DNA from: Escherichia coli
Lineage (GTDB): Bacteria > Pseudomonadota > Gammaproteobacteria > Enterobacterales > Enterobacteriaceae
Length of the DNA: 64,000 nucleotides
Direction: 5' to 3' (one strand)
Assembly: GCF_030013205.1 (NCBI RefSeq)
Contig: NZ_CP122648.1
Of this stretch, positions 42,470 through 43,657 are shown piece by piece. The stretch's first letter is position 1. Each line of letters starts with the position of its first letter. The position numbers and the translations under genes were made by a program. The notes beneath the pieces are model-generated. The model was not told where the DNA came from and made no database searches. It worked only from the letters and a program-made list of their open reading frames with translations.

Positions 42470-43657
42470 CTATATTGCATTTAAAAGGTCGTAATCATAC
42501 GTATAGTCCTCTCTGGTAAAATATTGCTTCTCTGAGTTATAAGCTTCATATGTGTTATATTTTACGACCTCAAAGCCATTGTCTGGAGAATTTTCGTCTT
42601 TCTCGGGTATATTATCTGGAAGGAATTCCTCTGAGCTAGAGTCCTCTATGTCTAAATCTGTATTGTAATTAATTTTTGGAACGATCAGATAAGCATTTTC
42701 TTTGACGCTTTCATAATCTTTAATGATTATATCGATGTAATAATCTATTTTTTCTAATGAGAACACTTTCATCTCTGGTAATTTAATTCTGTTCAAGTAA
42801 TTGTTAATTTTCGATGAGCTTTTATATATTTCTTTTGTTAATTCATTTTCTAATTCATCAGTTAGAGTTGCTCTTGGTATAGATTCTATAATTGCAAGTC
42901 TCATAATTTTTAATTGTTCTTCGGTAATATTTCCAAGCGCATTTAAACAACTTTCGACAAGCTTAATTTTTTCTTCAGAATACATATCGCTAATGCTTGT
43001 TAGAACAGGCGTTATTTTTAGTAAATAATCCCAGGAGATTGTGGTGTTTTGTTTTGAACTAACGAAATTTACCTGAAACATGTTGGCATTAGTAAAATCT
43101 GTGTCATCCAATTTAAAAGGATTTAAAATTGCATTGGCCATATGTTTATCTGTAAAATCATAAAGTTCTAAATCGACATTCCGTAAGTCCAGAGAGGATA
43201 GATCAACTATACCTCCAGTCCCACAACTAAAGATTACGTTCAATCTCCTGATTTCATTGTAAATGTCTTTCAATGGGCAATTAACATTGATATTGCCTGT
43301 GGATATTTCCTGGTTTTTTAACGGTTCATTAATTGTAAGTTCACAGGTATTGTCTGATCGTTGAATAATTCGGGCGTTATAACCAAAAAAATCCATACGA
43401 AGAGATGAATCATTATAAAGAATTACATTTTGTAAGTACGCTAATTCTTTTTGAAAATCACCAGTGATAACACATTTCCCACCTGGTTGTAACGCGTTAA
43501 GTAAGGTGACCATTTGAACAGAGGTCTGTTTTAGTTTTTCTATGCCTGGTGCTAGTGCTTCGAGGTTATTTCCTATGGGGCTTTCAGGAAGGTCATTCAT
43601 TTTTCGACGGGCTAAATCACTACTAATATCATTACCAATTGATGAAACAGGGGACAT
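42470..43657 (-). CDS. yhaC: uncharacterized protein YhaC with pentapeptide-repeat-like segment (395 aa)
   Basis: ORF track; AT-rich gene; hydrophobic residue every 5th position across DLSSLDLRNVDLELYDFTDKHMANAILNPFKLDDTDFTNANMFQVNF. Confidence 0.8.
   Translation of the reverse strand: MSPVSSIGNDISSDLARRKMNDLPESPIGNNLEALAPGIEKLKQTSVQMVTLLNALQPGGKCVITGDFQKELAYLQNVILYNDSSLRMDFFGYNARIIQRSDNTCELTINEPLKNQEISTGNINVNCPLKDIYNEIRRLNVIFSCGTGGIVDLSSLDLRNVDLELYDFTDKHMANAILNPFKLDDTDFTNANMFQVNFVSSKQNTTISWDYLLKITPVLTSISDMYSEEKIKLVESCLNALGNITEEQLKIMRLAIIESIPRATLTDELENELTKEIYKSSSKINNYLNRIKLPEMKVFSLEKIDYYIDIIIKDYESVKENAYLIVPKINYNTDLDIEDSSSEEFLPDNIPEKDENSPDNGFEVVKYNTYEAYNSEKQYFTREDYTYDYDLLNAI

Follow-up and report, generated by a model that had tools for sequence, protein, structure and literature searches.

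The yhaC locus

We analyzed a 64,000-nucleotide stretch of Escherichia coli DNA (assembly GCF_030013205.1, contig NZ_CP122648.1; hereafter the window) and focus on yhaC, whose product contains a tract of ten contiguous five-residue repeats. The gene order of the region is garPLRK-rnpB-yhaC-yhaB-tdcR-tdcA, and the coordinates of the features discussed here are collected in Table 1. YhaC is matched over its full length (residues 1-395 of 395) by the NCBIfam model 'YhaC family protein' (849.5 bits against a cut-off of 765, expectation value (E) 3e-256), and the DNA of the gene is 100% identical to an annotated coding sequence of strain K_EC180 (NZ_CP062203.1). An earlier inspection of the letters alone (the sequence-only reading) described YhaC as uncharacterized and as lying in an AT-rich islet. 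Both descriptions hold: the curated K-12 RefSeq record names the product 'uncharacterized protein YhaC', and the GC content is 0.30-0.40 across the islet compared with ~0.51 for the window.

Repeats in YhaC are undiscussed in the literature that mentions yhaC. A phrase search returned YjbI only, and a further literature match, 'YHAc', denotes acetate yield and not the gene. The older EcoGene/GenBank annotation of K-12 presumably carried the name 'pentapeptide repeats-related protein' for YhaC.

Table 1. Features of the yhaC region, in positions of the window. Residue numbers (aa) refer to YhaC; pLDDT, predicted local distance difference test.
Feature	Position	Strand	Basis or description
yhaC coding sequence	42470..43657	-	395 aa + stop; open reading frame; NCBIfam NF007262
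Putative pentapeptide-repeat tract, aa 151-200	43058..43207	-	periodicity, consensus score, profile matches, model
Predicted N-terminal alpha/beta domain, aa 36-145	43223..43552	-	two helices, five-stranded sheet, helix 129-144 into repeats
Predicted C-terminal helical region, aa 206-322	42692..43042	-	predicted helices 209-322, pLDDT <50
Acidic tail, aa 323-384, and motif YTYDYDLLNAI, aa 385-395	42473..42691	-	tail net charge -11, pLDDT ~25-35
yhaB, upstream operon partner, 3' end frameshifted	43669..44217	-	K-12-equivalent ATG at 44217; PF27690
AT-rich islet with yhaC, yhaB and tdcR, between rnpB and tdcA	42250..45000		GC content
rnpB (RNase P RNA), conserved islet boundary	41866..42242	+	Rfam RF00010, 318.6 bits, E 1.3e-104

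YhaC contains ten contiguous repeats in a single period-5 register

The sequence-only reading reported Leu, Phe or Met at every fifth residue of YhaC over about nine repeats. We confirm this tract, and the count is ten. The peptide originally quoted is present exactly (residues 152-198; 43064-43204, minus strand), and residues 151-200 divide into VDLSS LDLRN VDLEL YDFTD KHMAN AILNP FKLDD TDFTN ANMFQ VNFVS, centered on L153, L158, L163, F168, M173, L178, L183, F188, M193 and F198. Leu, Phe or Met fills 10 of the 10 positions of this register and 0-2 positions in the other four, and among the other periods from 2 to 8 the longest run is 4. A run of 10 was reached in none of 200,000 shuffles of the whole protein and none of 200,000 shuffles of the local region, each of which gave a maximum of 9, twice. 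The next-longest period-5 run in the window is 6 (159 stop-free stretches of at least 100 residues; 33,232 residues).

To score the repeats we used a published pentapeptide-repeat consensus, (A/C/S/V/T/L/I)(D/N/S/K/E/I/R)(L/F)(S/T/R/E/Q/K/V/D)(G/D/E/N/R/Q/K), which is applied to at least eight contiguous repeats (PMC8145042). The YhaC tract agrees loosely: its ten repeats are contiguous with no insertion and fit the consensus at 37 of 50 positions, a score attained by 1 of 20,000 shuffles, compared with 42-48 for true members. The central position (i) is Leu or Phe in eight repeats and Met in two, Asp or Asn precedes it (i-1) in 7 of 10, and in repeat 5 a single position of the five agrees with the consensus.

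The conservation of the tract follows the same register. All ten central residues are invariant across the YhaC family, and the number of invariant sites by position class is 10/10 at i, 5/10 at i-2, 6/10 at i-1, 3/10 at i+1 and 2/10 at i+2. Pooled, the classes that point inward are invariant at 15 of 20 sites, compared with 5 of 20 for those that point outward (Fisher p = 0.004). A quadrilateral beta-helix would be expected to show just such a frozen core and free surface, and as judged from the YhaC family alignment the pattern is independent of any outside sequence.

The tract, and only the tract, resembles pentapeptide-repeat proteins

An alignment of 16 YhaC sequences (A1) was turned into a profile, which we searched against 1.84 billion representative proteins. 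The search returned ~57 long non-Escherichia proteins (E 4e-11 to 1e-3), all of which match only at profile positions ~140-210. Each aligns in 2 to 12 separate stretches, and the 329 stretches stack on the tract. Every one of these proteins carries a period-5 hydrophobic run of at least 9, and all 10 of the 10 that were tested are PF00805 proteins (E 1e-14 to 1e-149). The similarity to established pentapeptide-repeat members is reciprocal. Sequence searches of the PDB with either the protein or the family profile matched residues 151-198 to pentapeptide-repeat proteins only, namely Np275/276 and designed beta1 proteins, at E 0.025-0.7.

The same profile search found no full-length relative of YhaC beyond one Escherichia cluster, and outside the tract YhaC is, as far as sequence comparison reaches, an orphan. 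One protein whose match begins upstream of the tract (P0151) was rejected as a wider relative, having only the capping helix in common with YhaC.

The YhaC tract shares with the pentapeptide-repeat superfamily (Np275/276, HetL, Rfr32, MfpA) contiguous five-residue repeats in which the center is Leu or Phe, i-1 is Asp or Asn, and i-2 is small or aliphatic. It differs in its length of ten repeats, or ~2.5 coils, inside a 395-residue multi-domain protein, and in having Met at two centers, bulky residues at some i-2 positions, and one nearly unrecognizable repeat.

A predicted beta-helix between two other domains

Structure prediction was carried out with AlphaFold on two alignments, the 16 sequences of the YhaC family alone and the same family with 123 non-redundant pentapeptide-repeat segments, which were aligned with HMMER, trimmed to query residues 150-204 and checked for register. 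With the added rows the pLDDT of the tract rises to 56-62 and isolated beta-bridges appear every five residues (152, 157 ... 197). The modeled coils, which are conditional on the supplied rows, superpose on HetL, MfpA and Np275/276 at 0.8-1.4 Å. We grade the beta-helix fold of the tract as probable rather than established because the model depends on the supplied rows and has moderate confidence.

Several results weigh against this fold. On residues 152-201 the Pfam models stay below their gathering scores, both Pentapeptide_4 (PF13599; 13.5 bits against 38, E 0.075) and Pentapeptide (PF00805; 11.4 bits against 20.2, E 0.25). Taken alone, the sub-threshold family models and PDB searches amount to half of what the sequence-only reading had named as grounds for its own rejection. 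AlphaFold on the YhaC family alone was uninformative (mean pLDDT 40, ~30 on the tract) and gave the tract no structure, and even with the added rows the pLDDT is just ~60. The bulky i-2 residues and the one badly degenerate repeat point in the same direction. These results would fit a periodic tract that is some other solenoid or an amphipathic beta-rich linker, similar by convergence, with the model an artefact of the added rows. We regard this as rather unlikely, given that the numerous profile matches to the pentapeptide-repeat family map only to the tract, that the inward conservation at i and i-2 is seen without outside information, and that Asp or Asn at i-1, present in 7 of 10 repeats, is a feature particular to the family consensus.

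We consider it likely that the tract is a pentapeptide-repeat beta-helix of ~2.5 coils that serves as a non-catalytic rigid spacer or protein-binding module. With four repeats per coil, we infer that the central residues would stack in four interior ladders (L153/M173/M193; L158/L178/F198; L163/L183; F168/F188), with the i-2 residues filling the remaining core. The helix at residues 129-144 would cap the repeats on their N-terminal side, with the helical region from residue ~209 following at their other end. The exposed i-1, i+1 and i+2 positions would form an acidic surface; the exposed surface of the tract has a net charge of -7, and few folded parts of the protein evolve faster. Placed in this way, the tract would be a rigid spacer with a binding surface, linking the alpha/beta domain on its N-terminal side with the helical domain on its C-terminal side. 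A non-catalytic spacer or binding role is the most likely one, and beta-helix domains play this part in bigger multi-domain proteins, for example SopA/NleL.

The two models agree on the N-terminal alpha/beta domain (pLDDT ~55-72). Within the C-terminal helical region, residues 238-317 (42704-42943, minus strand) gave sub-threshold matches to LinB-like_C (PF21418, E 0.027) and to structure 3jyy (E 0.024), and this likeness was rejected. The two matches are mutually consistent, both pointing to lincosamide nucleotidyltransferase, specifically its C-terminal helical domain; residues 238-317 contain no His and no Rx4-6H motif. The acidic tail is probably disordered according to the models. Its identity between the two haplotypes of the gene (described below) is 30%, compared with 91-100% for the last 11 residues. 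Both ends of YhaC are nearly invariant, residues 3-10 (PVSSIGND; 43628-43651) and residues 385-395 (YTYDYDLLNAI; 42473-42505), both on the minus strand, and they flank predicted disordered regions that are among the fastest-evolving of the protein. From this pattern the terminal segments resemble short linear motifs. YhaC has a pI of 4.5 and no predicted signal peptide or membrane segment, and the protein would be soluble and cytoplasmic as made.

Comparison with DNA mimics and with secreted effectors

The sequence-only reading also likened the tract to Qnr-type DNA mimics, and this part is not supported, leaving the earlier interpretation partly supported overall: the profile matches and the conservation favor a pentapeptide-repeat beta-helix but not the Qnr analogy. 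As a mimic of the Qnr, MfpA or AlbG type, YhaC would use an acidic beta-helix surface to bind DNA gyrase or a different DNA-binding enzyme. Qnr, MfpA, AlbG and McbG do have the same type of repeat, and the exposed surface of the YhaC tract is acidic. Qnr-type DNA mimics consist nearly entirely of repeats and dimerize into rods of DNA length. In YhaC, by comparison, the repeats make up 50 of 395 residues, far from the almost all-repeat architecture of Qnr and MfpA (~180-220 residues), and the tract is about one quarter as long as proteins of that type. No Qnr or MfpA model matches YhaC among the NCBIfam models at E up to 10, a search that returned the YhaC family model and one chance match. We conclude that Qnr-like DNA mimicry by YhaC is very unlikely.

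A different context is suggested by effectors of type III secretion systems, in which a pentapeptide-repeat helix follows an N-terminal domain, as in PipB2 and SopA. YhaC could be a cryptic effector of this kind, dependent on the E. coli type III secretion system 2 (ETT2) or on the locus of enterocyte effacement (LEE), with an N-terminal secretion region, an alpha/beta domain and a repeat helix in the manner of PipB2, SopA or EspY3. Its fast-evolving surface and its conserved C-terminal motif would then engage host proteins. EspY3, a type III effector of enterohaemorrhagic E. coli, has tracts of 8 and 9 repeats of the form A(N/D)(L/M/F)XX within a larger multi-domain protein (PMC6313403). Compared by description only, it is like YhaC in being an E. 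coli protein with short repeat tracts in a larger protein, and it differs in its SopD-like WEX5F N-terminal domain, which a Pfam scan did not find in YhaC.

The more specific comparisons are less favorable to an effector. The N-terminal domain of the Salmonella effectors PipB2/PipB (PF21684, structure 2lez) has no match in YhaC in the Pfam scan, and an hhalign comparison of PipB2 with the YhaC profile gave a probability of 0.07%. The PipB2 query is identical to chain 2lez over residues 17-161, and a homolog search with its N-terminal domain returned only near-identical Salmonella sequences, from which no broad profile is possible. PipB2 has ~30 repeats (PMC6313403) compared with 10 in YhaC, and YhaC differs further by its additional helical domain and acidic tail. 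SopA and NleL, which combine a beta-helix domain with a HECT-like E3 ligase, match in pieces only (root-mean-square deviation 17.9 Å over 115 residues), and YhaC has no HECT-like domain, no catalytic Cys signature and no such match in Pfam or NCBIfam. The resemblance to effectors falls in a grey zone, and by analogy of architecture we treat it as a lead and not as membership. An effector role seems improbable to us; it would add a cellular context and would be compatible with the beta-helix module proposed above.

Two diverged haplotypes of yhaC

Of 5,426 complete E. coli genomes, 4,320 contain yhaC, in most cases at only 90-95% DNA identity. At this one locus yhaB-yhaC exists as two ancient, deeply diverged haplotypes, whose YhaC proteins are 63% identical. 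The rare haplotype is carried by ~19 of the 5,426 genomes, with 17 more at 80-90% identity, and bears the RefSeq name 'hypothetical protein'. Divergence between the haplotypes is confined to ~42400-44650 (L003 4440-6170) with sharp boundaries, and the flanks are 95-100% identical. Mosaic yhaB-yhaC alleles also exist (for example, P0028).

Across yhaC the synonymous divergence (dS) is 0.58, compared with 0.06-0.12 in tdcA and garK, and the ratio of nonsynonymous to synonymous divergence (dN/dS) is 0.28-0.38, compared with 0-0.04 in the same two flanking genes. Because of these values, we read yhaC as a gene that is constrained, though far less than its neighbors, and that has old alleles; as estimated from the coding sequences, it is under purifying selection. 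In a published genome scan, yhaC ranks near the top for positive selection (PMC9110714).

One strain shows a way in which the gene is lost. In the clinical strain 14EC001 (L006 4244-5189), IS1A adjoins a 192-nucleotide 3' remnant of yhaC, and the genes from tdcD through yhaB are gone. An IS1A-linked deletion is one route to the ~20% of genomes without intact yhaC.

The operon partner yhaB

Relatives of YhaB (PF27690) are confined to Escherichia and Shigella, and on present sequence comparisons the yhaB-yhaC operon is found only in Escherichia. A phylostratigraphy study includes yhaB-yhaC among young operons of uniform age (PMC12218254). In K-12 (L002 1855-3603) the two genes lie in the same frame, with 561 nucleotides from one start to the other and a stop plus six codons between the genes. 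A 547-residue predicted protein (P0018) combines a PF27690 domain with all of YhaC and looks like a natural read-through fusion. In the window, yhaB has a 1-nucleotide deletion near 43767 (offset 451 of 540 relative to K-12) that changes the last ~29 residues and places the stop at 43669-43671, which is 11 nucleotides before the yhaC start; RefSeq flags yhaB as frameshifted in a record with an identical yhaC.

An AT-rich, genus-restricted operon that is variably present and has ancient diverged alleles could be a two-gene conflict system, for anti-phage defence or a similar purpose, sited in a variable islet and using the repeat surface as an arms-race sensor. The reported positive selection on yhaC (PMC9110714), the fusion of pentapeptide repeats to TIR domains in other proteins (for example, P0115), the shared frame of the two genes in K-12 and the open reading frame that spans both in P0018 would all fit such a system. 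Searches for signs of one were negative: PADLOC gave one non-significant match for YhaC (E 0.021) and none for YhaB, PHROGs gave nothing significant (best E 0.05), and the Pfam and NCBIfam scans contain no recognizable enzymatic or effector domain. YhaC has no match in phage collections. Its plasmid-collection matches number four, of which three are chromosome-sized records of 4.8-4.9 Mb and one, NZ_MG591698.1, is 354 kb and non-mobilizable. In this strain, moreover, yhaB is frameshifted while yhaC is intact. We consider a conflict system highly improbable.

A broader reading takes the effector comparison together with the haplotypes. YhaC, with YhaB, would be an Escherichia-specific protein directed at hosts or competitors, built on the PipB2/SopA plan from a small alpha/beta domain, a repeat helix and a conserved C-terminal motif, and exported by a route other than Sec, with its repeat surface kept as ancient haplotypes by balancing or diversifying selection. 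This is speculative, and we think it doubtful.

Other features of the region

The spacer between yhaC and rnpB is 227 nucleotides in the window (42243-42469) and 613 nucleotides in K-12, where it holds 3.5 copies of a 113-bp unit with 96% matches (L002 3847-4239); the window has no tandem array there. We place tdcR at 44473-44691 on the minus strand, matching the K-12 and K_EC180 annotation. The start at 44691 was chosen because the TdcR model covers only the last 72 residues (47-118) of the 118-residue open reading frame at 44473-44829. The garL gene is split at 38896-39671 (plus strand) into overlapping open reading frames at 38896-39375 and 39228-39671, with a span of 776 nucleotides that is not a multiple of 3, and the matching RefSeq record likewise marks garL as 'frameshifted'. 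Published maps add a 706-bp promoter island inside yhaC, which is tabulated under H-NS complex formation (PMC3661553), and minor sigma factor promoter sites in yhaB, upstream of yhaC (PMC5493296).

Implications

The tract is a divergent and unusually short case of a very well-known repeat family, in an orphan protein. YhaC is a K-12 protein without an assigned function or any domain annotation in current records, and the module proposed here is a first structural handle on it. It defines the residues to mutate, with ten invariant core positions set against a fast-evolving acidic surface, and the Qnr analogy, though tempting, is very unlikely to be a guide to function. More generally, curated repeat models overlook short degenerate tracts such as this one, which a family-specific profile can tie to their superfamily. 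The result is an incremental annotation rather than a new kind of system, but an architecture reminiscent of effectors, together with two ancient haplotypes at one locus, merits modest follow-up. If the exported, Escherichia-specific reading were true, a K-12 'y-gene' would represent a previously unrecognized effector family.
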